Positions 3,307-48,543 of a stretch of DNA of 64,000 nucleotides are shown here, piece after piece. The notes below the pieces were generated by a model. The model worked only from the letters and a program-made list of their open reading frames with translations. It searched no databases and had not been told where the DNA came from. How positions within the stretch are numbered: position 1 is the first letter of the stretch; each line of letters opens with the position of its first letter. This DNA is from Patescibacteria group bacterium. Lineage in GTDB: Bacteria; Patescibacteriota; Patescibacteriia; Patescibacteriales; JAQVLT01. A program made the translations under genes and the position numbers. The DNA is taken from positions 10,102 through 74,101 of the forward strand of contig JAQVLT010000006.1 of assembly GCA_028704015.1 (NCBI GenBank), read 5' to 3'.

Positions 3307-3446
3307 TGTTTGATTAATTAATTAAACAAAATATGCAAATATTATAACAATAATTTTACTGTTTGACAATCATAAAAATTTGGAGTAAATTATTTTGAAC
3401 AGCGTCCTTTTTATTGCAAAAACTACTCCGACCACATAGGAGAAAA

Positions 3447-3773
3447 ATGATACCCATCGCGATTCTAAAAACCGACAAAGACCCAATCTTCCTTTCTGGT
3501 ATCTTCAAAGGTTGCGATATCAAAATTGGAGGCCAGAAGGCATACGAGGTAATTGAAAGAAAACCGCGTCTGTTTACTTTCACACCTCTTCGTCAAAGAA
3601 CTTATTCGCGGCTGCCCACGGCCGCCATAAGAAACAATCGTGTGTGGTGTGGGAGTAAGGCATACCCCATAGTTAAATTGCTTCTCAAAGAAGCTGGTGT
3701 GAGCTTTGAAAAGGAACTTAGAACTTTTAAAACCCCCCGAGACGTGCTTGAAGCATTTCTCTCACACACATAA
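3447..3773 (+). CDS. hypothetical protein (108 aa; ORF track start 3414, internal ATG 3447 preferred)
   Basis: AGGAG lies 6 nt upstream of ATG 3447. This is a lone plus-strand ORF in a minus-strand block, followed by a hairpin and a T-run. Confidence 0.5.
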   Translation: MIPIAILKTDKDPIFLSGIFKGCDIKIGGQKAYEVIERKPRLFTFTPLRQRTYSRLPTAAIRNNRVWCGSKAYPIVKLLLKEAGVSFEKELRTFKTPRDVLEAFLSHT

Positions 3774-10360: not shown

Positions 10361-10972
10361 TTACGCGAATTTTCTAATCACCCCTCTAACCACCCCTTGG
10401 ATCAGCGGATCTTGAACATATATCGGCTGCATTGCAGAATTCGCCGGTTGTAAACGAATGCGATTCGGTTCGCGGTAAAATTTCTTGAGCGTCGCATAGG
10501 CATTATTAAGAAGAGCAACTACCACGTCGCCATTTCTTGGCGAGGGATTACGCTCCACGATAACAAAATCTCCGTTCAAAATTCCTTCTTCAATCATTGA
10601 CTCGCCTTTTACTTTCAAGACATAACTATTAAAACTATCAGTGACAAAATCTGCTGGCACGGCAATAGTCTCTGTATCTTCAACCGCTTCAATCGGCTCA
10701 CCGGCCGTAATCAATCCAGCTAACGGCAACTCAATCGCCTCTGCCCAATTAACCTCAGTTTTAACCAGCTCAATGGAACGCGCCTCGTTAAAAGATTTTT
10801 TTAAAAATCCTTTAGCCTTCAAATTGTCCAAATGTGATTGCACGGTCGCCGGACTGGACAAATCAAAATGCTCGCCGATTTCCCGCACTGTCGGCGCGTA
10901 GCCGTGCTTGCGCGTGAAATCATTGATAAAATCCAAAATTTGTCGTTGGCGTTTGGTGAGATTGTTGGTCAT
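10361..10972 (-). CDS. lexA: LexA repressor
   Basis: 203 aa. N-terminal wHTH (GYAPTVREIGEHF) and S24 peptidase motifs GESM and K in TLKKF. Confidence 0.9.
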   Translation of the reverse strand: MTNNLTKRQRQILDFINDFTRKHGYAPTVREIGEHFDLSSPATVQSHLDNLKAKGFLKKSFNEARSIELVKTEVNWAEAIELPLAGLITAGEPIEAVEDTETIAVPADFVTDSFNSYVLKVKGESMIEEGILNGDFVIVERNPSPRNGDVVVALLNNAYATLKKFYREPNRIRLQPANSAMQPIYVQDPLIQGVVRGVIRKFA

Positions 10973-11004
10973 ATTTTTGAAGTTAGTTATATTTTTGAAA
11001 TAGA

Positions 11005-11610
11005 CGCCCAGCCATAAATGGCCGAGCTACGTTCTTCCGCAAGCCCCATTAATGGGGCTTTGATTTTCTAGCCCAATCCGTTTACGGTTGGGCGATTGGG
11101 ATATATTCCAATATTTTTATAATATTATTTTCACCGTGATGTTTATTTTGATTCTGAATATAACTTTTAATAAATGGCGTCCCATTACTGCTTAAAGTTA
11201 AACCTCCAAATCCTTGTTGCCATTGGATGTATTTTTCTCCAAATATATTATTAATCTCGTGCGCGCTATATCCCTTTATTTGACCAACAAAATCCGATAA
11301 ACTAATTTGTGGCGGGACAGAACATAATAAGTGACAATGATCTAAATAGCTATTGAATTCAATTACTTTACTGCCCAAATTTTCACTTTTTCCGCAAATC
11401 AACCTACTTAATTTTTTGCTTATCTCCTCATCAATCAATCTCTGTCTATTTTTTGTACACCAAATTATATGGTAATATAATTTATAAAAATTATGTGGCA
11501 TATTTTTTCCTTTCACGCCGCCCAGCCATAAATGGCCGGGCTACATTTTTCCGTAAGCCCCATTAATGGGGCTTTTATTTTTATTAGCCCAATCCGTTTA
11601 CGGTTGGGCG
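11005..11610 (-). mobile_element. IS200/IS605-like unit: Y1 transposase gene bracketed by two about 90 bp triple-hairpin repeats in direct orientation
   Basis: Repeats at 11005-11094 and 11519-11610 are near-identical. Each holds three hairpins (GCCCAGCCATAAATGGCCGGGC, AAGCCCCATTAATGGGGCTT, GCCCAATCCGTTTACGGTTGGGC). Confidence 0.75.
11082..11516 (-). CDS. IS200/IS605-family Y1 (HUH) transposase TnpA, RAYT-like
   Basis: 144 aa. YHIIWCTKNR N-terminus, HUH motif DHCHLL, and C-terminal catalytic Tyr context SYIQNQ. The last codons lie inside the flanking repeat. Confidence 0.85.
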   Translation of the reverse strand: MKGKNMPHNFYKLYYHIIWCTKNRQRLIDEEISKKLSRLICGKSENLGSKVIEFNSYLDHCHLLCSVPPQISLSDFVGQIKGYSAHEINNIFGEKYIQWQQGFGGLTLSSNGTPFIKSYIQNQNKHHGENNIIKILEYIPIAQP

Positions 11611-11648
11611 AAGATGGCTAGCAATTCCTAAATCATAAATCTATTTAT

Positions 11649-11677
11649 AGTATACCCGAACAAAAAACGAACGTCAA
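11649..11677 (-). promoter_or_regulatory. sigma70-like promoter (TTGACG-17-TATACT) with a GTTC-N7-GTTC direct repeat in the spacer
   Basis: Minus strand reads cTTGACGTTCGTTTTTTGTTCGGGTATACT. On the plus strand, GAAC is at 11658-11661 and at 11669-11672. Confidence 0.55.
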
Positions 11678-11730
11678 GAAAAAAATAAAACCTTGAAAAC
11701 TTTGGCTAATATTCAAGGTTATTTTGCTAA

Positions 11731-12222
11731 TTATTTACCTAAAAATTTCAACGCTTCTTTGATTACTTTTACGCTATCCACAGAGTTATAAAATTTAATC
11801 TTATCAACCTCACCCAAGTTAATCCATTCTGCGATATCGGCATATCCTTGCTCATCTTCATCTAGATACTCTTTTGATAATTCCCCGCTAACTTTTTCGC
11901 ATAAAAAATACATAAGCTGGCAATTCCAATATCCTTTAACAAAACTCGGCGTAAAAAAAGAACTCTCGCAAACAACCGTCCGGCCGCGTTTTATTTTTAA
12001 TCCGGTTTCTTCCCAAAATTCTCTCTCCAAAGCTTCATTAATTGTTTCAGCAATCTCAACTCCCCCTCCCGGAAAATCATAGCCGTCCCATTGTTTAGAT
12101 AATAAAATTTTTCCGTCCTCAATCAAAATGCCATAAACCGAGGGACGAAAAATAAGTTCGCTCGCATCAACTTCTTTGTTTTCGCCATGCATATCTTGGC
12201 AGATTACTTTTTCTTTTGACAT
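11731..12222 (-). CDS. NUDIX hydrolase
   Basis: NUDIX box GGGVEIAETINEALEREFWEETG. Confidence 0.85.
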   Translation of the reverse strand: MSKEKVICQDMHGENKEVDASELIFRPSVYGILIEDGKILLSKQWDGYDFPGGGVEIAETINEALEREFWEETGLKIKRGRTVVCESSFFTPSFVKGYWNCQLMYFLCEKVSGELSKEYLDEDEQGYADIAEWINLGEVDKIKFYNSVDSVKVIKEALKFLGK

Positions 12223-27672: not shown

Positions 27673-27820
27673 GCAAAATGGCCTTAAAAATCTAAAAATC
27701 TAAAAATCTAAAAAATTTTAGCTAACATTAAATAAAATATAAACTAAAAAATATTAGTAAATTTGACAAAAAAATCTCTCCGCCGATTTATACACAGCCG
27801 ATCTAACATAATAAAATGTA

Positions 27821-27955
27821 ATTGTTAATTGTTAATTGTTAATTGTTAATTGTTAATTGTTAATTGTTAATTGTTAATTGTTAATTGTTAATTGTTAATT
27901 GTTAATTGTTAATTGTTAATTGTTAATTGTTAATTGTTAATTGTTCTCTTACCAC
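27821..27955. repeat. tandem octamer AATTGTTA x about 17
   Basis: Perfect head-to-tail repeats read directly. They overlap the last codons and the stop of the Mur-ligase gene (..LTINN*). Confidence 0.95.
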
Positions 27956-31897: not shown

Positions 31898-32007
31898 ATT
31901 ATTATGTTATACTTAACAACAAGAGTGCTGTTACTAACAAAATACCAAAATTTCGCATAATATACAACGACAAGTAGTTAATTAACATAAAATTCGTATA
32001 AAAACTA

Positions 32008-32186
32008 GTTCCGCCGAAATCGCTCGCTTACGCTCGCTCCTTTTCGGCGGAACGGCTTCGGAATCCTTCCTCGTCCCGCTCAGTCGCTCGCTCACGCTCG
32101 CGACATCGCGGAACTCGGAATACGCGAAATTGCCTTTCGTCCCGAAGCGTCGGGACTCCGGCAACTTCGCTTATTCCGAAGCCGTT
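32008..32186 (+). repeat. 179-bp GC-rich ORF-less element, copy E1 (at the attI-like junction)
   Basis: GTTCCGCCGAAA...TTTCGGCGGAAC hairpin, then a GGCTTCGGAAT...ATTCCGAAGCC long stem, bounded by GTT on both sides. Identical to E2 and E3 by eye. Confidence 0.95.
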
Positions 32187-32290
32187 ATACGCCATAATAA
32201 AAAGCCTCTTTTATTTTTAGTAATAATTTTGGCAATTTATTTTGTGAGGTCGACGTATAATTTTTTAAGTAATATTAATTAACAAAAAAT

Positions 32291-32581
32291 ATGCGAGACA
32301 AAATTACATTTACACAAAACAACCCAGGAGGACAAACTGGATTTGACAGATTCGAAGAAATTATTACGACATTAAACCCCGATCTTCAGGCCATCCTGAA
32401 GAGAATTCCTGAAGAAAAAATTGCACAAATGCTTAAAACATTCGGTGAAGCCGGAATAACGCCTGATAAAATAAATTTCACATCTGCTCTACCTAACTTT
32501 TCTTCTAAAGATAATAATGTTATTTTTACTGGGACCAAGGCCGACGGCGAAGAAGTTAAATATGGTATTGATGTGGCTTAG
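32291..32581 (+). CDS. hypothetical protein (cassette C1)
   Basis: 96 aa. The ORF is bracketed by an about 45 bp inverted repeat (32193-32243 / 32586-32631). Confidence 0.55.
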   Translation: MRDKITFTQNNPGGQTGFDRFEEIITTLNPDLQAILKRIPEEKIAQMLKTFGEAGITPDKINFTSALPNFSSKDNNVIFTGTKADGEEVKYGIDVA

Positions 32582-32631
32582 GATAAATTAAATTGCCAAA
32601 ATTATTTTATTAATAGAGGCTTTTTATTACA

Positions 32632-32833
32632 GCGTATAACAACGCATATCTGGCTACGGAAATTGTGCATTAATAGAAACCTTGAGGTGGCACAATTTCC
32701 TCCGCCCAAATCCCGCACTAATTTTTGTGGGATTTGGATGGAGTTAAGCATTTAAAGAAGTTTGCATTAATTTATTGCTTGTTTAAGAAACAACGAAAAA
32801 TTAGCGCGGGACTTCAGATGATGCGTAAACGTT
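32632..32833 (+). other. attC-like site 1
   Basis: GCGTATAAC-AA-CGCATATCTGG ... CTTCAGATGATGCG-TAAAC-GTT. Confidence 0.65.
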
Positions 32834-33009
32834 CCGCCGAAATCGCTCGCTTACGCTCGCTCCTTTTCGGCGGAACGGCTTCGGAATCCTTCCTCGTCCC
32901 GCTCAGTCGCTCGCTCACGCTCGCGACATCGCGGAACTCGGAATACGCGAAATTGCCTTTCGTCCCGAAGCGTCGGGACTCCGGCAACTTCGCTTATTCC
33001 GAAGCCGTT
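32831..33009 (+). repeat. 179-bp element copy E2
   Basis: Identical to E1 by eye. It starts at the GTT of attC-like site 1. Confidence 0.95.
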
Positions 33010-33089
33010 AGGCGACATATTTTAAAAACGATTCCAAAAACTTTTTTTATCGCCTTCGGCGATTTGGGGGCGAAAACTTTTTTTATTTT

Positions 33090-33098
33090 TGTTATAAT
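33090..33098 (+). promoter_or_regulatory. extended -10 element TGTTATAAT, 6 nt before ATG 33105 (possible leaderless transcript)
   Basis: Sequence tttTGTTATAATgaatacATG. No convincing -35. Confidence 0.4.
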
Positions 33099-33104
33099 GA
33101 ATAC

Positions 33105-33335
33105 ATGAATACTAAACCTTACTACAAATACAAAGATTTTTCTCTTTTTCACGGCAACTGCCTTGATATTTTAGCTAAAATTCCAGAAAATTCGGTTGAT
33201 ATGATCTTCGCCGATCCACCCTACCTACTCTCAAATGGCGGTTTTACCTGTCATGCTGGTCAAATGGTTAGCGTAAATAAAGGCCAGTGGGATGTAAGCA
33301 ACGGCCTAAAGAAAGATTTTGAATTTCATCTATGA
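33105..33335 (+). pseudogene. 5' fragment of a DpnA-like (beta-class, DPPY) N6-adenine DNA methyltransferase
   Basis: 76 aa. TKPYYKYKDF...SVDMIFADPPYLLSNGGF...VSVNKGQWD closely parallels the N-terminus of M2.DpnII (DpnA) as I recall it. It stops after about 25 percent of the expected length, and its TGA overlaps the next ATG. Confidence 0.7.
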
Positions 33336-34099
33336 AAATAATTTTTAATACAGCTCTTGCAAATAAATATACTAGCTTATCTCAAAAAGCCAGAGTTTTA
33401 ACTGAAACATGGGTTGACAATGAAATATTTTGTCCGAGTTGTGGGACAAATATTGAAAATTATGAAAATAATCGTCCAGTAGCTGATTTTTATTGCCCAA
33501 ATTGCAAAGAGGAATATGAATTAAAAAGCAAAAAAGATGGTTTGTCTAAAAAAATTGTTGATGGAGCTTATAAAACAATGCTTGAGAGATTAAAAAGCAA
33601 TAATAATCCGAACTTTTTTTTCTTAAATTACAATCCGATAAAATATGAGGTTTTAAACTTCTTGGTTATCCCAAAACATTTTTTTGTCCCTGATATCATC
33701 GAGAGAAGAAAACCATTATCAGAAAACGCTAGACGAGCTGGCTGGATAGGTTGTAATATCTTGCTTCAAGCTATTCCGCAAAGCGGAAAAATATTTTATA
33801 TAAAAAATGGAAATATTGAGAGCAAAGAGGATGTCTTAAAAAATTGGCAAAAAACTTTATTTTTAAGAGACTCAGACAAAGCTGAATTAAAAGGCTGGAT
33901 TTTAGATATAATGAGTTGTATTGATAAATTGAATAAAATAGAATTCTCTCTCGATGAAATTTATAATTTTGAAAACATTTTAAGCAAAAAACATCCGGAA
34001 AATAGACACATCAAAGATAAAATAAGGCAGCAACTACAATTTCTGAGAGACAAGGGGTATTTGAAATTTTTAGACAGAGGAAAATATAAATTAGTTTAA
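33332..34099 (+). CDS. DpnI-like methyl-directed (type IIM) restriction endonuclease
   Basis: 255 aa, collinear with remembered DpnI. SQKARVLTETWV, CPSC...NNRPVADFYCPNC zinc ribbon, EYELKSKK (D-EXK), NNPNFFFL, ARRAGWIGCNI, and the C-terminal wH IRQQLQFLRDKGYL..GRGKYKL. Confidence 0.8.
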   Translation: MKIIFNTALANKYTSLSQKARVLTETWVDNEIFCPSCGTNIENYENNRPVADFYCPNCKEEYELKSKKDGLSKKIVDGAYKTMLERLKSNNNPNFFFLNYNPIKYEVLNFLVIPKHFFVPDIIERRKPLSENARRAGWIGCNILLQAIPQSGKIFYIKNGNIESKEDVLKNWQKTLFLRDSDKAELKGWILDIMSCIDKLNKIEFSLDEIYNFENILSKKHPENRHIKDKIRQQLQFLRDKGYLKFLDRGKYKLV

Positions 34100-34301
34100 A
34101 ATTATGGAAATCAACATCAGCCCTTTACTGGCAAAAAATATTTTACGAATTAATTTTCTCACAAGAATAAAAATTATGTGCCGCGGATATAGTGAAGATA
34201 AAAAAAATTTCACCGAGCTTGTTTGGCCAGACGACAAAGATCTTGATTTTTACAACAAGAAAGATTATCCGCAATTTCAACTTTGGTTTATTTGAATTTA
34301 A

Positions 34302-35144
34302 ATGAAATATTCTATGGAAACTAATCATATTGCTATTTTTAAAGGCAAATCAATTAGAAAAACTATTTTTCATAACGAGTGGTGGTTTTCGGTAATTGAC
34401 GTTGTCGAAGCTCTAACCGGTACGGGCAGACCTAGAAAATATTGGAATGATTTAAAGAAAAAGCTACTAAGCGAAGGATTTTTTGAAGTGTCCGAAAAAA
34501 TCGGACAGTTTAAATTAATGGCTTCAGACGGCAAAATAAGAGAAACTGACTGCGCCGATACCGAGACAATGTTTCGTATTATTCAATCTATTCCATCACC
34601 AAACGCCGAACCATTTAAGCGCTGGCTAGCTAAAGTTGGTTACGAAAGAACCCAAGAAATTGAGAATCCTGAGCTGGGAATTAAAAGAACAAAGACTCTT
34701 TACAAACTTAAAGGATATTCTGAGGACTGGATTGAAAAGCGCATGCGTGGTATTACTATACGTGAAGAATGGACCGATGAATGGAAAAAACGAGGCGTTA
34801 AGGAAAATATCGAGTTTGCTATCTTAACCGCCGAAATATCAAAAGCAACTTTCGGCATGACACCAAGCCAATACAAAAAATTTAAAGGCTTAAAACGAGA
34901 AAATTTGCGAGACCACATGGACGACCTTGAATTAATTTTTTCTATGCTCGGCGAAGCTTCAACTACAAAGATTACTAGAAGCAAAAATGCAAATGGTTTT
35001 ATCGAGAATAAAACTGCCGCCCAGAAAGGCGGAAAAATCGCGGGTGATGCCAGGCGAAAACTTGAGGTTGAATCCGGCGACAAGGTTATTACTAGAAAAA
35101 ATTATTTAATAGGCGCTCAAAATCTTAAAAAACTAAAAAAATAA
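34302..35144 (+). CDS. Bro-N domain protein (antirepressor/DinD-like)
   Basis: 280 aa with the N-terminus IAIFKGKSIRKTIFHNEWWFSVIDVVEAL, typical of Bro-N. Confidence 0.65.
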   Translation: MKYSMETNHIAIFKGKSIRKTIFHNEWWFSVIDVVEALTGTGRPRKYWNDLKKKLLSEGFFEVSEKIGQFKLMASDGKIRETDCADTETMFRIIQSIPSPNAEPFKRWLAKVGYERTQEIENPELGIKRTKTLYKLKGYSEDWIEKRMRGITIREEWTDEWKKRGVKENIEFAILTAEISKATFGMTPSQYKKFKGLKRENLRDHMDDLELIFSMLGEASTTKITRSKNANGFIENKTAAQKGGKIAGDARRKLEVESGDKVITRKNYLIGAQNLKKLKK

Positions 35145-35250
35145 AAAAATTTTCGCCCCAAATCTAATTCGCTTCGCGAATTATAAAAAAAGTTTTTGGA
35201 ATCGTTTTTAAAATACGCTAAAGCCACGCTGCGCTCTCGCTATCGCTCGG

Positions 35251-35348
35251 GTCGCCTAACAACCGATATCCGGTTCGGGGCTCAGCTCGCCCCTCTCCCA
35301 TATTTTTGCTCCCGTTGGTCGCAAAAACATCGGATATCGCGAAACGTT
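35251..35348 (+). other. attC-like site 2
   Basis: GTCGCCTAAC-AA-CCGATATCCGG ... CATCGGATATCG-CGAAAC-GTT. Its R'' is the exact reverse complement of GTTAGGCGAC at 33007. Confidence 0.7.
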
Positions 35349-35524
35349 CCGCCGAAATCGCTCGCTTACGCTCGCTCCTTTTCGGCGGAACGGCTTCGGA
35401 ATCCTTCCTCGTCCCGCTCAGTCGCTCGCTCACGCTCGCGACATCGCGGAACTCGGAATACGCGAAATTGCCTTTCGTCCCGAAGCGTCGGGACTCCGGC
35501 AACTTCGCTTATTCCGAAGCCGTT
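35346..35524 (+). repeat. 179-bp element copy E3
   Basis: Identical to E1 by eye. Confidence 0.95.
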
Positions 35525-35544
35525 ATATGACATTTTAAAAAAAT

Positions 35545-35922
35545 ATGAATACGGAGCAATTGAAAAACAACAAATATTTTCTAGGATGCTATACAGACCC
35601 CGGAGCGTTTAACGGGTGGCAAATTGGGTCATTTTTTCCTGAAAACCATCCGTGCAGAACTGACATGGTTGAATTATTGTATAAAGAGCATGCCGCCGGA
35701 GATACAGAAAAGCCCCATTACCACAAACAAAAAATTGAATTAATAATCATGCTCGAGGGACAAGCCAAGTATAACGTAAACGGAAAAGATGTTCTGTTAG
35801 AAAACAGCAATTTTTTATTTGTAGATACAAACAATGTTATTTACGGGGAATTTCTAAAGCCTTCGAAAATATTTGTAGTGCACACACCTAGCCTGCCTAA
35901 GGATAAAACTTTAATTGAGTAG
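35545..35922 (+). CDS. cupin-fold protein (cassette C3)
   Basis: 125 aa with the HYH..E..LEG cupin-like motif PHYHKQKIELIIMLEG. Confidence 0.55.
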   Translation: MNTEQLKNNKYFLGCYTDPGAFNGWQIGSFFPENHPCRTDMVELLYKEHAAGDTEKPHYHKQKIELIIMLEGQAKYNVNGKDVLLENSNFLFVDTNNVIYGEFLKPSKIFVVHTPSLPKDKTLIE

Positions 35923-35938
35923 AAATTTTTTTAAAACA

Positions 35939-36058
35939 TCATATAACAAAGAATATCTGGTTCAAGAATTTTTCTTGTTAATGTATAAGGAGTAAAAATT
36001 CTTTCACCCAAATTTTATTTCACTACGTTCAATAAAACTTCAGATATTCTTATACGTT
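35939..36058 (+). other. attC-like site 3
   Basis: TCATATAAC-AAA-GAATATCTGG ... TTCAGATATTC-TTATAC-GTT. Confidence 0.65.
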
Positions 36059-36232
36059 CCGCCGAAATCGCTCGCTTACGCTCGCTCCTTTTCGGCGGAA
36101 CGGCTTCGGAATCCTTCCTCGTCCCGCTCAGTCGCTCGCAAGCTCGCGACATCGCGGAACTCGGAATACGCGAAATTGCCTTTCGTCCCGAAGCGTCGGG
36201 ACTCCGGCAACTTCGCTTATTCCGAAGCCGTT
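36056..36232 (+). repeat. 177-bp element copy E4 (short variant GCTCGCAAGCTCGC)
   Basis: Same as E1 except for a 2-nt shorter inner hairpin. Confidence 0.95.
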
Positions 36233-36376
36233 AGCTGAAATATATATTTTTCTTTTGCCCTGCGGGGCAACTCTTAAAAAGAATTCAATTTTTGTTTTTT
36301 TATTAATTAGAAAGGGGTAATAAGTGTTTTCTTCGCTACGCTACAAAAACGATTTATTAATTAATCCAAAAAATAT

Positions 36377-38548
36377 ATGAAGAAACAATTAACAATTCTA
36401 CTAATTCTAACTTTTATTTTAGGGTTAGTGCCTTTCAATTTTTCAGAGGCGATTACTCAAAATCAAATTAGTGCCGAGGTTCAAATTGTTTGCCCGGACA
36501 ACTACGGAAATTGGTATAGCGGTTCGGGAACAATCATTGATCCTAAAGGAATTATTTTGACAAATAAGCACGTGGTATCCGACCAATATGGCGGAATTAT
36601 AAAAACCTGCTTTATTGGCTTTACGGAATCCATAAGCCAAGAACCAAATTTTGGTACTGAAACAAACCCAAATTTGGCAGAGGTAAAGTATTATACGACT
36701 GCAAATGATATGGATGCGGCTATCTTGTATCTCAATAATCTAACAAATAAAAGCTACGCTTATGTTGATATATGGAATTCCAACTCAAACGCTTTGCAAT
36801 TCGGCCACAAAATTGAAGCTATTGGTTTTCCCGGTATTGGCGGCTCGACAATAACTTATACTTCTGGCGATTTTAGTGGTTTTGGTAGTACGTCAGACGG
36901 AACACAAAATTACCTAAAGGCCACAACTCCACTCGAACATGGCAACTCTGGTGGTGCGGCATATAATCCAACAGGGCAATTTATCGGCATTCCAACAATG
37001 GTGGTTGCTGGCACTTTAAATTCTTTAAGTTATATCTTATCCGTCAATAGTATTAAAAGTTGGTTGTCTGGGATTTTAGGAAATAATTATCAACAAGAGG
37101 TTATCGAGCAAAAACCAATCGTAGAAAAACCAAAAGTCAGCGTGCAGAACGATATCACGCCGCCCGACATTAGTAAGTATAAACCAATTGCTACATGGAA
37201 TACGTTTATTTATTATGATTTATATAATAAAAATAATGAAACAATAAAAATGGGTCAATCAATAGATAATAAAATTATTCAAACTGGCATTTCTAACAAA
37301 ATTTCCTTATACACAAGCTACTCAGGAGATAAGACTTGGAATAAAACTATGGGTTATGACGTGGTTGAAAGTGAAAGCGGACTTTACAGTGTTTATTATA
37401 AATTCTCAAATAGTTTATCAGGATTAAACGATAAACCTTATGAAGAACAGGTGTTAAAATTAGATCTTGGCAGAACTGCAATTACTCCAATAATTGAATT
37501 ACCCGATAAAGAAGGCAGTTATTATTTTTCAATTAAATTTAAAGATAACGCAGGGAATGTTTCAAATGAATACATTTTAACGTATACATATTTAAAAGAG
37601 CATTATAAAGAATTAAAAACTTTGTATTTTTATTCTGATAAAAATTATAAAAATCTAATTGGTAGTTACGACATGAACTTTCTCTTTGATGGTTTTGATT
37701 ATTTGCGATGTATCACAAAATATAATACTGTCTATGTTCGATGGAAATATGATGATGACGATCAATTTCCTGGTTATGTAGCGAGAATCTTCCCTGACGA
37801 TATGTACGCGCTCAACCCTTCGGATACTATCAATAATAAAAACCTATCTTTAATAACAAATAATAAAATTCCCGTATATAATATAAATAAGTCAACAAAA
37901 GACGATCATGTATCCGATCTAAAAATATGCATGGATAAAAACGATACTCTGTGCAATTTAAGTGGCCAGGTAACATCGCTTTTGCTAAAACCAGTTGCAA
38001 ATAAGGACCTTTTTTTGGAAGGCAAAAATACTGTTGTAAAATTTCATTACAATTCAAATTTTGATCAAGGGTTTATGTGTGGATATCCTGATATAGAAAA
38101 TGAAAGTAAGCGCAATGCCATAGGAGAACCAAATTATTATATTCTAACTCAAGGTAATACTAATGCATCTAATGATTTATCGGAAAAGTTAAGCGGCCGC
38201 ATATTATTGCAAGTTGAAGCTCATGGTGAAGCTTATTATGTATATCCTAAAGACGGCAAAAGATACTATATGGCCAACGGTAATGAAGCATACAGAATAA
38301 TGAGATATTTAGGTGTTGGTATAACCAACAACGATTTGAATAAAATCAAAAATGATAAAAATTTCGCTAAAAAACACAGCGGAAAAATATTTTTGCAGGT
38401 TGAATCTCGTGGCGAAGCCTATTATATAGACTTTAACGGCAACGCCCATTATCTAAAGGATGGCGCCGCTGCATATACCGCCATGAGAGAATTAGGGCTT
38501 GGGATTACTAATAATAATTTAAATAAAATTCCAGAAGGAAGATTGTGA
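36377..38548 (+). CDS. secreted trypsin-like (S1/S1C-type) serine peptidase with large C-terminal extension and two terminal repeats
   Basis: 723 aa. Signal peptide or TM, TNKHV (His), DMDAAIL (Asp), GNSGGAAY (Ser). Two about 55-aa C-terminal repeats (LQVEaHGEAYY...GITNNdLNKI). Confidence 0.7.
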   Translation: MKKQLTILLILTFILGLVPFNFSEAITQNQISAEVQIVCPDNYGNWYSGSGTIIDPKGIILTNKHVVSDQYGGIIKTCFIGFTESISQEPNFGTETNPNLAEVKYYTTANDMDAAILYLNNLTNKSYAYVDIWNSNSNALQFGHKIEAIGFPGIGGSTITYTSGDFSGFGSTSDGTQNYLKATTPLEHGNSGGAAYNPTGQFIGIPTMVVAGTLNSLSYILSVNSIKSWLSGILGNNYQQEVIEQKPIVEKPKVSVQNDITPPDISKYKPIATWNTFIYYDLYNKNNETIKMGQSIDNKIIQTGISNKISLYTSYSGDKTWNKTMGYDVVESESGLYSVYYKFSNSLSGLNDKPYEEQVLKLDLGRTAITPIIELPDKEGSYYFSIKFKDNAGNVSNEYILTYTYLKEHYKELKTLYFYSDKNYKNLIGSYDMNFLFDGFDYLRCITKYNTVYVRWKYDDDDQFPGYVARIFPDDMYALNPSDTINNKNLSLITNNKIPVYNINKSTKDDHVSDLKICMDKNDTLCNLSGQVTSLLLKPVANKDLFLEGKNTVVKFHYNSNFDQGFMCGYPDIENESKRNAIGEPNYYILTQGNTNASNDLSEKLSGRILLQVEAHGEAYYVYPKDGKRYYMANGNEAYRIMRYLGVGITNNDLNKIKNDKNFAKKHSGKIFLQVESRGEAYYIDFNGNAHYLKDGAAAYTAMRELGLGITNNNLNKIPEGRL

Positions 38549-38605
38549 TAGCAAAATAGAAACGATAAATATAAATTTTAAAAAATTAGCCTTAAACAAA
38601 AAACA

Positions 38606-39811
38606 ATGATTAGTTTTGAAGTTAAAAATAATTTTCTTATACTTATCTACAATGCAGAGAGCGAAAACAATGAATGGGTTTTTAATAAAATAAAAGAGTC
38701 TGGTAAAGTTACACTCAGACAAACTTTTACTTTCACCGAGGAAGATTTACATAACATTAATCTAAAATCAGTAGATGAAAATGATTATGAAAAACCAATA
38801 AAATTTTCACTTGCGAAATTAGCAGATGGCTATTTTAAAATTGAAAAAAGAATATTACTAATAGATTATTTTGTATTTATATATAAAGACGTAAAAATAT
38901 CATTAAATTTTTTTATGTCAACAAAAAACATCTCAATATTTAAAATAATAAATAAACTAACAAGCGAAGATGTTTACATTGGGGGTAATAGCCCTGATGC
39001 CATACCCAAAAAAGTTTTTTTTGAACTTATTGAAAATTTTCCCAATAATTATGAGGTAGCTAAATACGTTAACGCACGTATTAGCTCCATTTTAAGAGAC
39101 TATTTTGACTCAACAATCGATAGCGAAAAAGAATACAATCAATACATGAATAAAAAAATAAGTCATAGGGGAAAAAATTTATCAATCCTATTTGTGGATA
39201 ATGAACTAAATAAATATAAAATCATTTTAGATAAACTCAGGGAGATGCTAAAAGATGAAGATAAATATAACGAAAAACAATGGCAAGAAGAAATCATACA
39301 AATAATATTATTTATATTTCCCAAATATATTAGAGTTTTTAACGAAGCTCCTGTAAGGGACACATACAACAACAAAACAAGACTTATTGATTACTTATTA
39401 ATTGATTCAAATGGAAATACTGATATTATTGAAATAAAAAAACCCTTTAGTCATTGTATTGTAACAAAAACCGTATACAGAGATAACTACATCCCCTTAA
39501 GAGAATTATCTGGTACCGTTATGCAAATCGAAAAATATATTTTCTATCTGAATAAATGGGGAAAAAAGGGTGAAAATAAATTAACAAATAAATATAAAAA
39601 CGAGCTTCCAAACAAATTTCAAATAAAAATTACAAACCCTGGCGGTATTATAATTATGGGTAGAGAAGATAAACTATCAACAGCTCAAAAACATGACTTT
39701 GAAGTAATAAAAAGAAAATATAAAAATATTATTGATATTATAACTTATGATGATTTACTGAAAAGATTGCAATTTATTATAGATCGATTAGAAAATTTAT
39801 CCAAAAAATAA
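38606..39811 (+). CDS. Shedu-like (DUF4263) PD-(D/E)xK nuclease
   Basis: 401 aa. C-terminal LIDYLLIDSNGNTDIIEIKKP (D...ExK), QIEKY, PGGIIIMGR, ITYDDLL, as in SduA-family proteins from memory. Confidence 0.6.
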   Translation: MISFEVKNNFLILIYNAESENNEWVFNKIKESGKVTLRQTFTFTEEDLHNINLKSVDENDYEKPIKFSLAKLADGYFKIEKRILLIDYFVFIYKDVKISLNFFMSTKNISIFKIINKLTSEDVYIGGNSPDAIPKKVFFELIENFPNNYEVAKYVNARISSILRDYFDSTIDSEKEYNQYMNKKISHRGKNLSILFVDNELNKYKIILDKLREMLKDEDKYNEKQWQEEIIQIILFIFPKYIRVFNEAPVRDTYNNKTRLIDYLLIDSNGNTDIIEIKKPFSHCIVTKTVYRDNYIPLRELSGTVMQIEKYIFYLNKWGKKGENKLTNKYKNELPNKFQIKITNPGGIIIMGREDKLSTAQKHDFEVIKRKYKNIIDIITYDDLLKRLQFIIDRLENLSKK

Positions 39812-39830
39812 TTAATTAAAATGCTATAAT

Positions 39831-39896
39831 GAGTTTTAGATTATGGGCATTCACCCCTAACCCCTCTGCCCAAAATCTAAAACGAAAAAAACAAAA
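39831..39896 (+). repeat. conserved hairpin with C-rich loop (TTTTAGATTaTGGGCA-TTCACCCCTAACCCCTC-TGCCCAAAATCTAAAA), copy 1
   Basis: A near-identical copy lies at 47763-47825. Both sit after the last ORF of a cassette. Confidence 0.85.
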
Positions 39897-39954
39897 CTGA
39901 ATTCTTTTTGCGAGTAATCCCAATAGCTATCGGGATTAAAGAAAAATATATACA

Positions 39955-40054
39955 TCAGCTAACACGGCATATCCGGTTGCGGCTTTTATACAAAAGCCTA
40001 CACCCACATTTGCCTCCGCTACGCTACGGCAAACATCAGATATGCCGAAACGTT
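39955..40054 (+). other. attC-like site 4
   Basis: TCAGCTAAC-AC-GGCATATCCGG ... CATCAGATATGCC-GAAAC-GTT. Its R'' is the reverse complement of GTTAGCTGA at 36230. Confidence 0.7.
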
Positions 40055-40228
40055 CCGCCGAAATCGCTCGCTTACGCTCGCTCCTTTTCGGCGGAACGGC
40101 TTCGGAATCCTTCCTCGTCCCGCTCAGTCGCTCGCAAGCTCGCGACATCGCGGAACTCGGAATACGCGAAATTGCCTTTCGTCCCGAAGCGTCGGGACTC
40201 CGGCAACTTCGCTTATTCCGAAGCCGTT
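40052..40228 (+). repeat. 177-bp element copy E5 (short variant)
   Basis: Identical to E4 by eye. Confidence 0.95.
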
Positions 40229-40420
40229 ATACGCAATTCAAAAAATATTTTTCTTTTAATAAGGAATTTTGACAGGCTTTTTAAAAAGGGGAATAAATTT
40301 GTTTTTTTATTTATTAGAAAGGGGTAATATTGTGTTTTTTCTGCTTTTGGAGGCGCAGAAAAAACGATTTACTTACAAGGGGAAAACGGGTACTATACAA
40401 TTACTTATTAGGAATAAACT

Positions 40421-41614
40421 ATGGCAAATAAAAATCTTACAAATGCTAAAAAGGCAAAGAATGATGAATTTTATACTCAATTTTCAGATATTCAAAAAGA
40501 AGTTGAGTCCTATCTTGAATATGACGCTAACACTTTCAAAGGGAAAGTAGTTTATAGCAACTGCGACGACCCATTTGAGAGTAATTTCTTCCGCTATTTT
40601 GTCCTAAATTTTAAAAGACTAGGGATGAAAAGACTTATTGCAACTAGTTACAAACCGTCACCAGTTGCGAATACTCAATTAGAGCTTTTTGGAAATGATA
40701 CTACTCTTAAACCCATGAAAGGACGCCCGAAAATAACTGCTAATAAATTCATTATTAACGAAGTTGGTGATGTGAATGGCGACGGTTCTTTTACGCTAGA
40801 AGATATTGCCCTACAACTTAAAGCAAACAAAAACAACGAATGGTCTCCGCTTGAGGGTGATGGTGACTTCAGGAGTGATGAGTGTGTCGAGTTACTCAAG
40901 CAATCTGATATTGTCGTCACTAATCCTCCGTTTAGTTTATTTCGTGAATATATAACTCAACTCTTTGAACATAAAAAACAATTTCTAATCATCGGAAATC
41001 TCAATGCAATAACTTACAAGGAAATTTTTCCAATGATCAAAGCGAATAAAGTTTGTTTGGGAAATAATGCAAGAGTTAATGGTGGTGCAATGTTTTATGA
41101 GATTCCAGAAGCTGTTGCAAACTTGGATCAAGTTCGTGAAATCAAAACGGATGAAAAAGGTAAAAAGGTATATATAACAAGAGTCCAGGGAGTTCGTTGG
41201 TTTACAAACCTTGACCACGGACGACTACACCAACCTATTCCCCTAATGAGTCATGCCGACGTCTTAAAGTTCAGTACAAATAAGCCATTCGTACACTATG
41301 ACAATTATGATGCTATTGAAATTGCTTTAGTAAAAAATATTCCTAAAGACTACAACGGCGTTATGGGCGTACCAATCAGTTTTTTAGATAAGTATTCACC
41401 CGATCAATTTGAGATTTTAGGGACAAGCGATAACGGTCTCGTAGATGACAAGTACAAAACATCGCTAGGTTTAAAAAAACAATTTGTAGAAGACTACTAC
41501 AAAGCTGGGGGCACTGGTGCCTACAAAGAAGGTAATCCAACAGCGGGTTTTTACGAAGACGGCATCGCAAAAATGGCTTACAAGCGAATTTTTATAAAAC
41601 ACAAGAAAAACTAA
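40421..41614 (+). CDS. N6-adenine DNA methyltransferase, EcoRI-methylase-like family
   Basis: 397 aa with N-terminal NDEFYTQ and catalytic VVTNPPFSLF (NPPF). Confidence 0.75.
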   Translation: MANKNLTNAKKAKNDEFYTQFSDIQKEVESYLEYDANTFKGKVVYSNCDDPFESNFFRYFVLNFKRLGMKRLIATSYKPSPVANTQLELFGNDTTLKPMKGRPKITANKFIINEVGDVNGDGSFTLEDIALQLKANKNNEWSPLEGDGDFRSDECVELLKQSDIVVTNPPFSLFREYITQLFEHKKQFLIIGNLNAITYKEIFPMIKANKVCLGNNARVNGGAMFYEIPEAVANLDQVREIKTDEKGKKVYITRVQGVRWFTNLDHGRLHQPIPLMSHADVLKFSTNKPFVHYDNYDAIEIALVKNIPKDYNGVMGVPISFLDKYSPDQFEILGTSDNGLVDDKYKTSLGLKKQFVEDYYKAGGTGAYKEGNPTAGFYEDGIAKMAYKRIFIKHKKN

Positions 41615-41615
41615 C

Positions 41616-42878
41616 ATGAAAAAAGTTAAAGTTTCAATTCAAGATGAAAACACGTTGGTTTTATTAGAAGATGGATCAAGGGGTGATTTAATTGACCTCA
41701 GGTCCATACATGAAGCTGATATTGATAAAACAACCATTACAAATGTGGTTAACTCCATAAAACGTGATGTTTTTAATGCTGAACTCCAAAAAGAAAAAAA
41801 TGTCATTAAGCGTGAAAATGAATTAAAGCTTGAACTCAAGGAAAAAGAGTTCAAAAGCCGCGCAAAAGAAGATTTAATGGAGAAAGACAAGGAAATTATT
41901 GCACTTAATTCAGAACTAAAAAATATCGCTGAGAAAACAGAATCAGCTATAAAACTTAAAGATATTCAAGAGAAGCAAAAGATAGAGGAGGAATACAGAG
42001 AAAAGTTGAACGAGAAAGAAATTGAGATAAATAACATCAAGCACGAGAAAGAATTAAGCGAGGAAAAACTAAAAGAACAAATCAAGTCAACAGAGACAGC
42101 TCTTGTTTCACTAAAGGAAATGCGCACCAAGATGAGTACTAAGATGATTGGTGAGTCTCTTGAAGTACACTGCGAAAATGAATTTAATCGTATTCGTCAT
42201 ATAGCATTTCCTAATGCAAAGTTTGGTAAAGATAATGCCGTATCAGAATCTGGTTCAAAGGGAGACTACGTTTATCGCGAAGTTGATGAAGATGGCAATG
42301 AGATTTTGTCCATTATGTTTGAAATGAAGAACGAGGATGACATTACCGCTACAAAGAAAAAGAATAAAGATTTCTTTAAGGAACTAGATAAAGATCGTCA
42401 GGAGAAAAAATGTGAATATGCTGTCTTGGTAAGTCTCCTTGAAAAAGATAATGAATATTATGATGACATTGTTCCTGTTTATGAATATAAACTTATGTAT
42501 GCTATCCGCCCCCAGCATTTCATTACTATCATTGGATTTCTACGACAAGCAAATATAAAATCACAGCACCTCAAGCGTGAAATTCACATACTTAACAATC
42601 AAAATGTTGACGTTTCAAACTTTGAAGCAAACATGAATGCATTTAAGGAGGCATTCTCAAGAAATTTCAGTTTGGCATCAACACAATTCTCTAACGCTAT
42701 TGCAGAGATAGATAAAACCATTGACCATTTAAATAAAGTCAAAGAAAATCTTCTAAAATCTGATAACAACCTACGACTTGCAAATAATAAGGCCACCGAC
42801 TTATCTATAAAGAAACTAACCTCCAATAGTCCAAGCGTAGCCAAAGCATTCGAAGAAATTAATAATGAAAATAAATAA
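41616..42878 (+). CDS. DUF2130 protein (coiled coil plus C-terminal PD-(D/E)xK-like module)
   Basis: 420 aa. [47 protein letters not shown] match the DUF2130 pattern from memory. Confidence 0.7.
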
Positions 42879-42880
42879 TT

Positions 42881-44044
42881 ATGAAAACCACACTAAAAAA
42901 TGACATCACGATAAAAGAAGTTTGCGATGGTTTTGTATATAATGAACTTGAAGGCAAAGGGCTGTTCGGTCTCTCGGGCAAACTAACTATTCAGCCAGAG
43001 TATCAGCGTAATTACATTTACGCTGACGGCAAATGTGACGTTGCTGTAATTGACTCAATTTTAAAAGGTTACCCAATAGGTTTAATTTATTTCAACCATG
43101 TTAGCACTGATAAATTTGAAGTGCTCGACGGACAGCAACGCATCACTAGTATTGGTCGGTTTGTGACAGGCAAGTTTGCCGTCAAAGATAAAAATGGACA
43201 TGAACAATATTACAGTGGCATGGCTACCAGTCAACGCGAGCAAATAATGAACGCTAAATTGTTAGTGTATTTGTGTAAAGGTGATGAGCTTGAGATTAAG
43301 GATTGGTTTAAAACTATCAATATCGCCGGAGTACCATTAACCGAACAAGAGATTCTCAATGCAGTATATTCTGGAACATTTGTTACTCGCGCTCGCGAAG
43401 AATTCAGTAATAGCCAAAATACCAACATTCAGAAATGGAGTACCTATATTGCAGGTGATATCAAACGCCAAGCATATTTAGAACGGGCTTTAGATTGGGT
43501 TTCTGGTGGAGAAATCGATAGCTACATGAGTAAACATCGGAACGATAAAAACATCACTGAACTGAAAAAGCATTTCGATACTGTCATTGACTGGGTTTCA
43601 ACCACCTTCACGGACGTTGAAAGTGAAATGAAGGGTCTTGAGTGGAACAGGCTTTACCAAACTTACCACAAGAAAAAATACAACCCAGCAATAGTTTCTG
43701 CTAAGGTTCAGAAACTCTATGCTGACGGCTTTGTAAAAAGTCGTAAAGGCATTTTTGAATATGTTTTAGGTGGAGAAGTAGAAACAAAACTGCTTGAAGT
43801 TCGAGTATTTGAAGACCCGACAAAACGTTCAGTGTATGAAGCTCAAACTTCCGCCGCAAAAAATAAAGGCATTTCAAATTGCTCGCATTGCGCGATTGGT
43901 CACGATGCGAACAAAACGAAAATTTGGGGTTTGAGCGATATGGATGCCGATCATGTTTCGGCTTGGAGCAAGGGCGGTGCAACAGATGTAAAAAATTGTG
44001 AGATGTTGTGTAAGACGCACAATCGAGCAAAGGGAAATCGTTAA
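42881..44044 (+). CDS. DUF262 (ParB/GmrS-like, DGQQR) plus C-terminal HNH endonuclease
   Basis: 387 aa. [19 protein letters not shown], and C-terminal [32 protein letters not shown]. Confidence 0.75.
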
Positions 44045-44145
44045 CCAAATAATTAAAATCAGTATGGAAAATGCTTAAAAAATAAATTGAGGATATAATG
44101 GAGAAAGTGAAATGTACATATATAATTTAGGCTAAAGACAGCAAT

Positions 44146-44173
44146 AAAAAACGCCTACCGGGGGCGTTTTTTG
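44146..44173 (+). terminator. intrinsic terminator
   Basis: AAAAAACGCC-TACCGGG-GGCGTTTTTTG. Confidence 0.75.
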
Positions 44174-44247
44174 TATTAATAGAGTTAAATACAGAAAGGT
44201 AAAGCATAAAAGAAAATGATAATTATTTGTTTTTGTGTCCCATTTTG

Positions 44248-44276
44248 TTGCGCTGGTGTCCCAAATATGCTAATAT
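44248..44276 (+). promoter_or_regulatory. promoter TTGCGC-17-TAATAT flanked and overlapped by a GTGTCCCA direct repeat
   Basis: tttGTGTCCCAttttgTTGCGCtgGTGTCCCAaatatgcTAATAT. It lies 40 nt upstream of the AAA ATPase gene. Confidence 0.5.
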
Positions 44277-44316
44277 ATTAAGTGTGGATAAAATAAATTC
44301 ATTTCATTTAAAATAA

Positions 44317-45363
44317 ATGTATATGCGCAAAAAAAACATTTTAAATTTAATTAAATATCATGCCGAAAAAAATGAGGCGGGTTTTAAAAATGAAGCCTAT
44401 GACATAGCAAGATATTTCGATTCTACTGGTGACTCTGAATTGGCTCAATATATTATGGCCTTACTGTCTGGCGCTAATACTTTTGTGCCGCAGGACAACG
44501 AATACAATCTTCCATTTTTTATGAAAGCAAATTTAGATAGTAGCAAATCCTTCCCACTTCCCACTCTTATAACAAACGATATAGTGGGCATTATAAATTC
44601 AATTGGACATAAGATTGGGGTTAACAAATTCTTATTTGAGGGTGATCCTGGAACAGGCAAAACTGAAACAGCAAAACAAATTGCTCGTATTCTTGAACGA
44701 GATTTATATGTGATAGATTTTGATAGTGTTATAGATAGCAAGCTTGGTCAAACGTCCAAAAACATTGCTTCCGTTTTTACAGAGTTACAAAGATTGCCTC
44801 ACCCAGAAAAAGTCATTATTTTATTTGACGAGATAGACGCAATAGCTTTAGATAGAATTAACTCTAACGATTTACGAGAAATGGGGAGAGTAACTTCTTC
44901 TGTTTTAAAAGGGTTGGATGGATTAAATGATGAAGTTGTTCTTATAGCCACCACTAATCTTTTTGGGCAATTCGATAAGGCTTTACTTAGAAGATTTGAT
45001 TCAATTATAAATTTTAATAGGTATAACAAAGAAGAATTGATTGAAGTCGCAGAATCTATGTTAAATGAGTTTTTAACAAAATTTAAATTTGCTAGTCGTA
45101 ATATGAGGCTTTTTAAAAAAATATTTTTAACATTAGACCATATTCCTTATCCTGGTGATTTGAAAAATATAATTAAAACCGCACTAGCATTTAGTGATCC
45201 AAATAATGAATATGATTACTTAAAAAAATTATATGAATCTATACAACCTAAAGACAAAAAGATAGATTTAAAAAAATTACAGTACAGCGGTTTTACGGTT
45301 AGAGAAATAGAAATATTAACAGGAGTTTCTAAAAGCCAAGTGTCGAGAGAACTAAATGTCTAA
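44317..45363 (+). CDS. AAA+ ATPase, IetA-like, with C-terminal HTH
   Basis: 348 aa. Walker A GDPGTGKTE, Walker B VIILFDEIDA, ATTN sensor. C-terminal FTVREIEILTGVSKSQVSREL. Confidence 0.75.
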   Translation: MYMRKKNILNLIKYHAEKNEAGFKNEAYDIARYFDSTGDSELAQYIMALLSGANTFVPQDNEYNLPFFMKANLDSSKSFPLPTLITNDIVGIINSIGHKIGVNKFLFEGDPGTGKTETAKQIARILERDLYVIDFDSVIDSKLGQTSKNIASVFTELQRLPHPEKVIILFDEIDAIALDRINSNDLREMGRVTSSVLKGLDGLNDEVVLIATTNLFGQFDKALLRRFDSIINFNRYNKEELIEVAESMLNEFLTKFKFASRNMRLFKKIFLTLDHIPYPGDLKNIIKTALAFSDPNNEYDYLKKLYESIQPKDKKIDLKKLQYSGFTVREIEILTGVSKSQVSRELNV

Positions 45364-47611: not shown

Positions 47612-47762
47612 CCGTTAGTTTACAATTCCATCGGAGCTGTGTAAAAACAAAAGTACGTTTAATAGTATCACCAAAAAGTTTTAGGGATCAAACCCAAATA
47701 AAAGACAAAAATTCCCTCCCCTTAAACCCCTTCCTTTTTGCCTTTTATTTGAAAAGAATAAG

Positions 47763-47825
47763 GAGTTTTAGATTTTGGGCATTCACCCCTAACCCCTCTG
47801 CCCAAAATCCAAAACAAAAAACAAA
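47763..47825 (+). repeat. conserved hairpin with C-rich loop, copy 2
   Basis: Matches 39831-39896. It is preceded by a second AT-stem/C-rich-loop hairpin at about 47697-47755. Confidence 0.85.
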
Positions 47826-47879
47826 TTTATTATTAAGTAGCCTATCAAAATATTATTTTATTTAAAATATTTTTGAACA

Positions 47880-48005
47880 GCGTATAACACGGCATAATCT
47901 GGTTCCAGAATTTTTCATTAACAGTTAATAATAAGGAGTAAAAAATTCTTACACCCATATTTGCCTCCGCTACGCTACGGCAAACATCAGATATGCCGAT
48001 ACGTT
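47880..48005 (+). other. attC-like site 5
   Basis: GCGTATAAC-AC-GGCATAATCTGG ... CATCAGATATGCC-GATAC-GTT. Its R'' is the reverse complement of GTTATACGC at 40226. Confidence 0.7.
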
Positions 48006-48181
48006 CCGCCGAAATCGCTCGCTTACGCTCGCTCCTTTTCGGCGGAACGGCTTCGGAATCCTTCCTCGTCCCGCTCAGTCGCTCGCTCACGCTCGCGACA
48101 TCGCGGAACTCGGAATACGCGAAATTGCCTTTCGTCCCGAAGCGTCGGGACTCCGGCAACTTCGCTTATCCCGAAGCCGTT
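48003..48181 (+). repeat. 179-bp element copy E6
   Basis: As E1 with one substitution (TTATCCCGAAG). Confidence 0.95.
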
Positions 48182-48531: not shown

Positions 48532-48543
48532 TTTTGAAAAACA

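Follow-up and report, generated by a model that had tools for sequence, protein, structure and literature searches.

We report that a 64-kb stretch of a Patescibacteria metagenome-assembled genome (64,000 nucleotides, nt, of contig JAQVLT010000006.1; G+C content 36.9%), hereafter referred to as the window, carries a 607-bp cassette (11005-11611) in which a gene for a Y1 HUH protein is situated between two three-hairpin modules, and that this cassette lies in sense orientation in the leader of lexA. Comparison with the loci of relatives ties subclass 1.2 of the TnpAY1 proteins to a defined multi-hairpin module resembling REPINs (doublets of repetitive extragenic palindromes, REPs), in Patescibacteria and widely in metagenomes. 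On balance we favour the reading that the locus is a hybrid between an IS200 insertion sequence (IS) and a REPtron, the modules being the enzyme's single-strand DNA sites and the unit having arrived whole. The cassette would then be self-contained and consist of a Y1 HUH single-strand endonuclease/ligase together with two cognate cis elements of the REPIN or bacterial interspersed mosaic element (BIME) kind.

The two modules, 91 and 93 nt long, were identified by repeat finding and blastn; they are in direct orientation on the same strand and 91.4% identical with one 2-nt indel, which agrees with the near-identical direct modules proposed in a first-pass annotation of the window (its "right-hand" module is, in gene orientation, the copy at 11005-11095). 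Read in gene sense, the module starts with TC-GCCCAACCG-TAAA-CGGATTGGGC and an A-rich spacer, continues with AAGCCCCA-TTAA-TGGGGCTT and a spacer having GTAG at its end, directly before the third hairpin in both copies, and closes with CCCGGCCA-TTTA-TGGCTGGG-CG. The central hairpin is a perfect palindrome with a TTAA loop, and the outer two are diverged inverted copies of each other (GCCCAACCG..TAAA versus the reverse complement GCCCAGCCA..TAAA), each with TAG at its 5' foot on its own strand. The REP/BIME-like composite ends suggested earlier are thus borne out as inverted TAG-footed hairpins around a palindrome, and arrays as well as one solo copy are present in relatives (see below). Because the module is pseudo-symmetric, the covariance model R1, which is described further on, also recognises its opposite strand (63-67 bits).

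All three hairpins are present in both copies and none of the three patterns gave a match in dinucleotide shuffles of the window. Each module is predicted to form three stem-loops as single-stranded DNA (z = -3.4 to -5.2 versus shuffles), with folding energies of -26.3 and -23.0 kcal/mol for the minus (gene-sense) strand versus -23.8 and -19.9 kcal/mol for the plus strand, the gene-sense strand folding better because of G:T pairs. No terminal inverted repeats were detected at the ends of the cassette, where the modules are direct. Moreover, as noted earlier, the window holds only these two modules: R1 with filters off finds no third one in the 64 kb (next match 12.6 bits, E ≈ 0.8), nor is there any REP-like dispersal in the 64 kb. 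Across genome contigs, the 16-mer core of the central hairpin, GCCCCATTAATGGGGC, was found in at least 115 unrelated terminator-like palindromes, with the outer hairpins H1 and H3 at none of the matches listed. Three independent assemblies (L001-L003) are 100% identical over a 2-kb region, and these, together with a like layout at unrelated loci, rule out an assembly artefact or a recent tandem duplication.

Table 1. Positions of the cassette, its hairpins and the neighbouring features in the window. R1, covariance model of the module; H1-H3, hairpins in plus-strand order.
Feature	Position	Strand	Description
Upstream module (gene orientation)	11519..11611	-	93 nt; R1 91.9 bits on minus versus 66.9 bits on plus strand
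Upstream module, hairpin 1	11609-11587	gene sense	GCCCAACCG-TAAA-CGGATTGGGC
Upstream module, hairpin 2	11574-11555	gene sense	AAGCCCCA-TTAA-TGGGGCTT
Upstream module, hairpin 3	11541-11520	gene sense	GCCCGGCCA-TTTA-TGGCTGGGC, GTAG just before
Downstream module	11005..11095	-	91 nt; direct orientation; R1 89.7 bits
H1	11006-11027 (1 mismatch); 11520-11541
H2	11041-11060; 11555-11574
H3	11071-11093; 11587-11609
Y1 HUH gene	11082..11501	-	139 aa + stop; TnpAY1 subclass 1.2-like by motifs
lexA	10361..10972	-	203 aa; starts 32 nt after downstream module
Promoter-like sequence	11649..11677	-	TTGACG-17-TATACT; upstream of cassette
NUDIX gene	11731-12222		hairpin and T-run after its end
Hairpin 3' of NUDIX gene	11684..11725	-	AACCTTGAA...TTCAAGGTT then T-run

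The gene starts, at its ATG, 17 nt after the end of the upstream module. The open reading frame at 11082..11516 does encode the 144 amino acids (aa) given in the first-pass annotation when read from a GTG at 11516, but the ATG at 11501, preceded by AGGA 6-9 nt upstream and chosen in the NCBI annotation, is the likelier start. At the other end the TAA stop codon (11082-11084) constitutes the first three bases of the TAAA loop in the first hairpin of the downstream module; the coding end accordingly falls inside the module, with three full codons (A-Q-P, which make up one hairpin arm) and 2 nt of an Ile codon and not the four to five codons first counted.

The protein has a complete Y1 HUH domain (Pfam Y1_Tnp, PF01797; 99.7 bits) with the motifs YHIIW, DHCH (the HuH), WQ and YIQNQNKHH; the HuH, the catalytic Tyr114 and Gln118 are intact. 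It scores 89.3 bits with the NCBIfam IS200 model NF033573 (cut-off 55), and NCBI annotates it accordingly. A PDB sequence search gave full-length similarity to 2xm3 (named only "transposase"; E = 3.5e-13), which we take to be ISDra2 TnpA, and to the ISHp608 (IS608) TnpA 2a6m (E = 1.3e-11), and no match at E ≤ 1 to the Escherichia coli REP-associated tyrosine transposase (RAYT) structure. With the RAYT model REP_Tyr_transpos (NF047646) the protein scores 22.9 bits versus a cut-off of 80, and the Y---NP motif is absent, its tyrosine motif being YIQNQ; model score and motif rule out membership of the RAYTs, to whose flanking REP/BIME clusters the modules had at first been likened.

By its motifs the protein appears to be TnpAY1 subclass 1.2-like, except for the Cys in its HuH. 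Subclass 1.2 is characterised by DH[IV]H, WQ and YIKNQKEHH, has a median length of 148 aa, is known mainly from Cyanobacteria and Bacteroidetes, and was described as IS200-like in sequence and low-copy, with 36% mean identity among the copies of a genome, and as lacking IS properties, REPs or an assigned role (Quentin, Siguier, Chandler, Fichant 2018, PMC6006769). Y---Q--HH is present in 144 of the 150 nearest representative clusters of a 1.84-billion-protein library, and motifs of this type rule out a classical IS200/IS605 TnpA (subclass 1.1). The earlier designation as an IS200/IS605-type Y1 transposase therefore stands as far as a Y1 HUH protein of the IS200 superfamily is concerned but not for a typical subclass 1.1 TnpA, and such genes probably call for a less specific name than "IS200/IS605 family transposase". 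The subclass consensus DH[IV]H is not matched by the DHCH of the window protein: this Cys is limited to a small clade (the window protein, P0002, P0003, P0005, P0009, P0161 and P0167, with NHCH in P0162), and other family members have V, I or L. Relatives are rare, with three close matches in 5.8 billion proteins (word-indexed search) and nine representatives below 1e-30 in the 1.84-billion-protein library, and none was found on viral contigs.

Two Y1 domains in tandem, i.e. single-chain "dimers", are seen in proteins of 266-321 aa that make up approximately 28 of the 150 nearest representative clusters (P0004, P0006-P0008, P0010, P0011 and others), and in some of these proteins the HuH or Y motif is degenerate in one half. 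One such double-Y1 gene (L227:2501-3376) has long nested palindromes on both sides (AACGTGTCGCCCCTCCGGGGCTA ... TAGCCCCGGAGGGGCGACACGTT; about 2262-2377 and 3402-3667), to which R1 gave no match. Unexpectedly long proteins were dropped as gene fusions or annotation errors in the 2018 survey (PMC6006769).

On the minus strand the order of genes is NUDIX, cassette, lexA, response regulator and a 608-aa HlyD-like gene. The promoter-like sequence upstream of the cassette (Table 1) is probably that of lexA, since a nearly identical, orthologous sequence precedes lexA in two relatives that have no cassette (L221 and L226). Its spacer includes GTTC-N7-GTTC (11658-11672), the sole match in the window with approximately one expected by chance, and this is a possible LexA box in view of its conserved position in the promoters of the relatives. 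The hairpin 3' of the NUDIX gene is a probable NUDIX terminator and would mark the upstream limit of the lexA leader.

The first-pass annotation had proposed to look for an empty site upstream of lexA, and such sites exist. In L226 (LexA 95% identical) and L221-L223 (91%) the NUDIX-lexA-response regulator order is kept without the Y1 gene and without modules (none in the fetched DNA of these four loci; best score below 14 bits, R1 with filters off), and this absence of the whole unit favours mobility. Because both modules and the gene are absent in these near relatives, the unit of gain or loss is the entire 607 bp, which was probably inserted into the lexA leader. At 87% LexA identity, a further relative differs in the gene upstream and has a spacer of 94 nt. 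In L221 and L226 the lexA leader has diverged too far, and holds a different element, so that the insertion junctions could not be mapped. Insertion into a pre-existing solo module, or excision that leaves one module behind, is unsupported as the empty-site loci are without any module.

The different element is an unrelated inverted-repeat element of 130-210 nt in the lexA leader (L226:1136-1267 and L221:2741-2951, also in L222 and L223) of the form TGTCATTCC(G/C)G...C(C/G)GGAATGACA; small structured elements seem to be inserted preferentially between the lexA promoter and the start codon, as at a hotspot. In the window an 18-nt tandem duplication (10964-10999) spans the start of lexA, its copies in gene sense being TTCAAAAATATAACTAAC and then TTCAAAAATATGACCAAC, with ATA in the first copy, which adjoins the downstream module, and ATG in the second. 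Since the two copies follow each other on the same side of the cassette, they do not represent a target-site duplication.

To compare module organisation, approximately 90 relatives' loci were collected by a metagenome contig scan with an alignment of the DHCH clade and from contigs encoding individual homologues. The architecture with modules beside a Y1 gene recurs in relatives that are 30-58% identical to the window protein, and nearly all relatives that are at least 42% identical have GC-rich hairpins with 4-nt loops (TAAA/TTAA/TTTA) approximately 300 nt or less from the gene. The number of modules per side varies between 0 and 4, and the side also varies. L149 has exactly the layout of the window, i.e. 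module, gene and module in direct orientation, the modules being 94% identical and the stop codon falling within the first loop (PAHP*); a stop in the loop is also suggested for P0005 by its C-terminus (PAQP). At L142 (58% identity) two tandem modules precede the gene and none follows it, and there is a complete solo module 2 kb off, beyond two genes, that is 95% identical to the proximal module. L004 and L147 have at least three modules per side. In L198 and L201 (33% identity; 53-54% G+C) the gene is flanked on either side by modules of four hairpins. What is repeated in L142, L149 and L147 is the module as a whole. For P0161 (loci L120-L129), the upstream array is built from a 67-nt unit with the hairpin GCCCAACCATTTATGGTTGGGC, and its copy number differs between metagenome samples: three in 8 of the 10 places shown and two in L123 and L128, with identical flanks. 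No conserved flank motif was evident across loci. Finally, the Y1 gene of L145 (55% identity) has one hairpin, located upstream, and lies between perfect 28-bp inverted repeats, CGGCTCTTCGCTATCTATGGTAGGTAAA, at 545-572 and 1070-1097 of a 1.5-kb contig, an arrangement that resembles a Y1 gene associated with terminal inverted repeats ("TIRYT") or insertion into a palindromic target.

Alignment of 12 modules from seven loci gave three helices with 93.8% of cells paired, versus 72% in shuffles and 26-52% with slid partners. Compensatory double changes are present in 16 of the 23 pairs, while the loops T(A/G)AA, TTAA and TTTA are invariant. The NTAG foot is present in 10 of the 12 modules, and the first hairpin has [CT]TAG on the other strand. 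The covariance model R1 was built from this alignment, and the loci in it match by construction; R1 also matches loci outside the alignment (L183, L166, L130, L158, L169, L198 and L201). In 369 kb of relatives' loci it finds 64 non-redundant sites at ≥35 bits with a median distance of 90 nt from the Y1 gene, 31 upstream and 33 downstream, and 51 are in gene orientation. Module identity is 65-94% within a locus versus 58-69% between loci, as expected if the modules co-evolve with the enzyme.

The IS608 and ISDra2 TnpA act on IS-end hairpins, and TnpA-REP on REPs, in single-stranded DNA (PMC6006769). That the module is the cis site of the enzyme is the simplest account, since it is structured, conserved and covarying and follows the gene through very different sequences; the module, conserved in a Patescibacteria member and in dozens of metagenomic relatives, is thus a candidate DNA substrate for subclass 1.2. 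We suggest that a dimeric enzyme would bind the hairpins when the gene-sense strand is single-stranded, e.g. at a replication fork or during repair, and would cut and rejoin at the hairpin feet using Tyr114 and the H-C-H metal site. As the left and right ends are the same module, equivalent cut positions would be available at both ends, such that the whole unit might move or single modules might be copied or deleted; the latter would explain why tandem arrays, differing copy numbers and a solo module are seen in relatives. The unit would have been inserted into the lexA leader downstream of the lexA promoter. On the gene-sense strand no T-run follows any of the hairpins, and read-through into lexA would still be possible because the hairpins have no U-tract in the orientation of the cassette. 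The Y1 gene may therefore be co-transcribed with lexA. We infer that the cassette could be under SOS control, the box motif by itself not being statistically significant, and its place ahead of lexA, within the leader, suggests that the activity of the enzyme could be tied to DNA damage and single-stranded DNA.

Several points weigh against the hybrid reading. The 64 kb hold a single copy of the cassette and no second copy of the Y1 gene, and the presence/absence pattern at lexA could in principle reflect deletion, not insertion. Moreover, the surroundings of P0161 (52% identical) are fixed, with the order tRNA_edit-Y1-scpA-scpB in all samples read; the gene overlaps scpA at its 3' end, the downstream module is absent, and P0161 looks domesticated rather than mobile. 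The strand preference of R1 comes partly from the orientation in which the model was built, G:T mismatches outnumber A:C ones on the sense strand by little (8 versus about 5 cells), too little for a strand call, and the structure conservation fits a role in RNA as well as one in single-stranded DNA. Finally, hairpin binding and cutting, the strand used, co-transcription with lexA and any current activity belong to the inferred part of the reading.

Among the other explanations, a classical active insertion sequence of the IS200 group would have the modules as its left and right ends (LE and RE), several identical copies in the genome and peel-and-paste transposition like IS608. We consider this unlikely. 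The above-cut-off score with the NCBIfam IS200 equivalog and the NCBI annotation speak for it, as do the hairpins at both ends on one strand, the different genomic context of each homologue, and the lack of the unit, and of any remaining solo module, at the syntenic site of close relatives. Yet Y---Q--HH is the motif of subclass 1.2, reported as low-copy and without IS properties (PMC6006769), there are only the three close matches in 5.8 billion proteins with no second copy in the 64 kb, no relatives were found on viral contigs, and the ends are 91% identical over 91 nt instead of being a distinct LE and RE with separate cleavage sites. Modules that are tandem, solo or one-sided are not expected either, and the contexts of P0161 and P0017 are fixed across many samples; the situation of several relatives, in fixed context or with modules on one side, does not match a plain LE/RE insertion sequence.

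The hairpins could instead act on transcripts or transcription, as stabilisers of untranslated regions, in control of Y1 translation or as insulators against antisense or incoming transcription. Such a role would be akin to that of the hairpins at the left end of IS200, which prevent read-through and mask the ribosome-binding site. In its favour, the last upstream hairpin always ends 11-25 nt before the start codon and the first downstream hairpin overlaps the stop codon; in addition, H2 with its T-run on the opposite strand is a textbook terminator, and the covariation fits RNA equally with single-stranded DNA. This explanation leaves unaccounted for the tandem multiplication, the solo copy between unrelated genes, the matching modules on both sides, and why the structures accompany a single enzyme family, all known relatives of which have DNA hairpins as substrates. 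The module also has no Rfam match (best Acido-Lenti-1, 20.7 bits versus a gathering score of 37, taken as chance), and overall we regard a function at the RNA level as quite improbable.

A domesticated REPtron in the RAYT sense, i.e. an immobile, host-kept gene that propagates a REP/REPIN family across intergenic regions, is the least probable of the explanations, since for all the REPIN/BIME-like symmetry with TAG (here GTAG) at the 5' feet, the arrays and one solo intergenic module in relatives, the fixed single-copy context of P0161 and the IS200 "Group 3" enzymes that have no duplicates but abundant flanking 16-mers (Bertels, Gallie, Rainey 2017, PMC5581495), the protein fails the RAYT model, motif and structure comparisons given above, the other 63 kb of the window hold no dispersed copy, only 4 of the 64 relatives' sites are more than 500 nt from the gene and none more than 2 kb, and near relatives lack the gene at the syntenic site, which is not how a vertically inherited housekeeping gene behaves.

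A bolder proposal, which goes beyond the hybrid reading and which we put forward only tentatively as its chances appear rather poor, is that subclass 1.2 enzymes form a third hairpin-repeat system beside IS200/IS605 and RAYT-REP: a cassette of approximately 0.6 kb, the ends of which are a portable three-hairpin REPIN-like site with fixed TAAA/TTAA/TTTA loops, that would move whole or multiply its sites locally and that would be wired into the SOS regulon via the lexA promoter. Should the cassette still be active, no smaller autonomous mobile element would have been described from bacteria, and none would have been characterised before in Patescibacteria.

Other repeats were observed in the window. 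A GC-rich intergenic repeat of approximately 220-240 nt with several internal hairpins is dispersed over 19 kb (31987-50662), with copies near 31987, 32810, 35325, 35993, 39989, 47940, 49076 and 50638; its hairpins include GTCCCGA-AGCG-TCGGGAC (seven copies) and AACTTCGCTTATTCCGAAGCCGTTA (eight copies), and it is a different family from the Y1 modules and far more abundant. Short intergenic palindromes of the CCTGCCTGCCGGTAGGCAGG type are present in at least six copies (13681, 15557, 29427, 29842, 49144, 62250 and 62451), and a like motif also occurs inside the lexA-leader element of L221. A 7-nt microsatellite, TAATTGT, with approximately 18 repeats is located at 27819-27945.

Compared with known systems, the cassette shares features with several. 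With respect to subclass 1.2 (PMC6006769), the WQ motif, YIQNQNKHH versus YIKNQKEHH, the size of 139-144 aa versus a median of 148 aa, a short conserved C-terminal tail (..ILE.IP) and the low copy number agree, whereas the window protein has DHCH instead of DH[IV]H, the host belongs to the Patescibacteria, and the gene lies among cognate multi-hairpin modules here and in most of the relatives examined, which departs from the reported absence of IS-like ends and REPs.

IS200/IS605 elements (IS200, IS608 and ISDra2; subclass 1.1) are similar in their Y1 HUH core with Y---Q, which gave the best matches to solved structures (E about 1e-13 to 1e-11), in their same-strand hairpins at both ends and in their presence/absence at a syntenic site, and the IS200 group likewise has no tnpB. 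They differ by short, distinct LE and RE, whereas the cassette ends are two 91%-identical three-hairpin composites of 91-93 nt, the modules also occur solo and in tandem, and the 64 kb hold one copy. IS200 is about 0.7 kb long and the 607-bp cassette is shorter.

As in RAYT/TnpA-REP systems, the gene is situated within cognate clusters of GC-rich hairpins with a (G)TAG foot (the RAYT criterion being 5' GT[AG]G; PMC6006769), hairpin sequence and enzyme lineage vary together, and there is usually one copy of the gene. Unlike in these systems, the protein is class 1 and not class 2, with no Y---NP and a score that fails the RAYT model, and the modules are overwhelmingly gene-local and mostly co-oriented, without high-copy dispersal in the 64 kb and in the relatives' loci. 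REPINs and BIMEs also have two inverted hairpins with a linker as the repeat unit, but the linker of the module is itself a conserved palindrome, which gives three hairpins.

Finally, the IS200 "Group 3" proteins (Bertels, Gallie, Rainey 2017, PMC5581495) behave in a RAYT-like manner, without duplicates, not on plasmids and with abundant flanking 16-mers, and they may represent the same lineage as the window protein; the hairpin module architecture and the presence in Patescibacteria were not described in that paper. The association with modules runs against the 2018 description of subclass 1.2 (PMC6006769) and is in line with the hint given by "Group 3" (PMC5581495). The locus stands between a selfish IS200/IS605 element and a domesticated RAYT-REP system, and could inform how the one evolved into the other.

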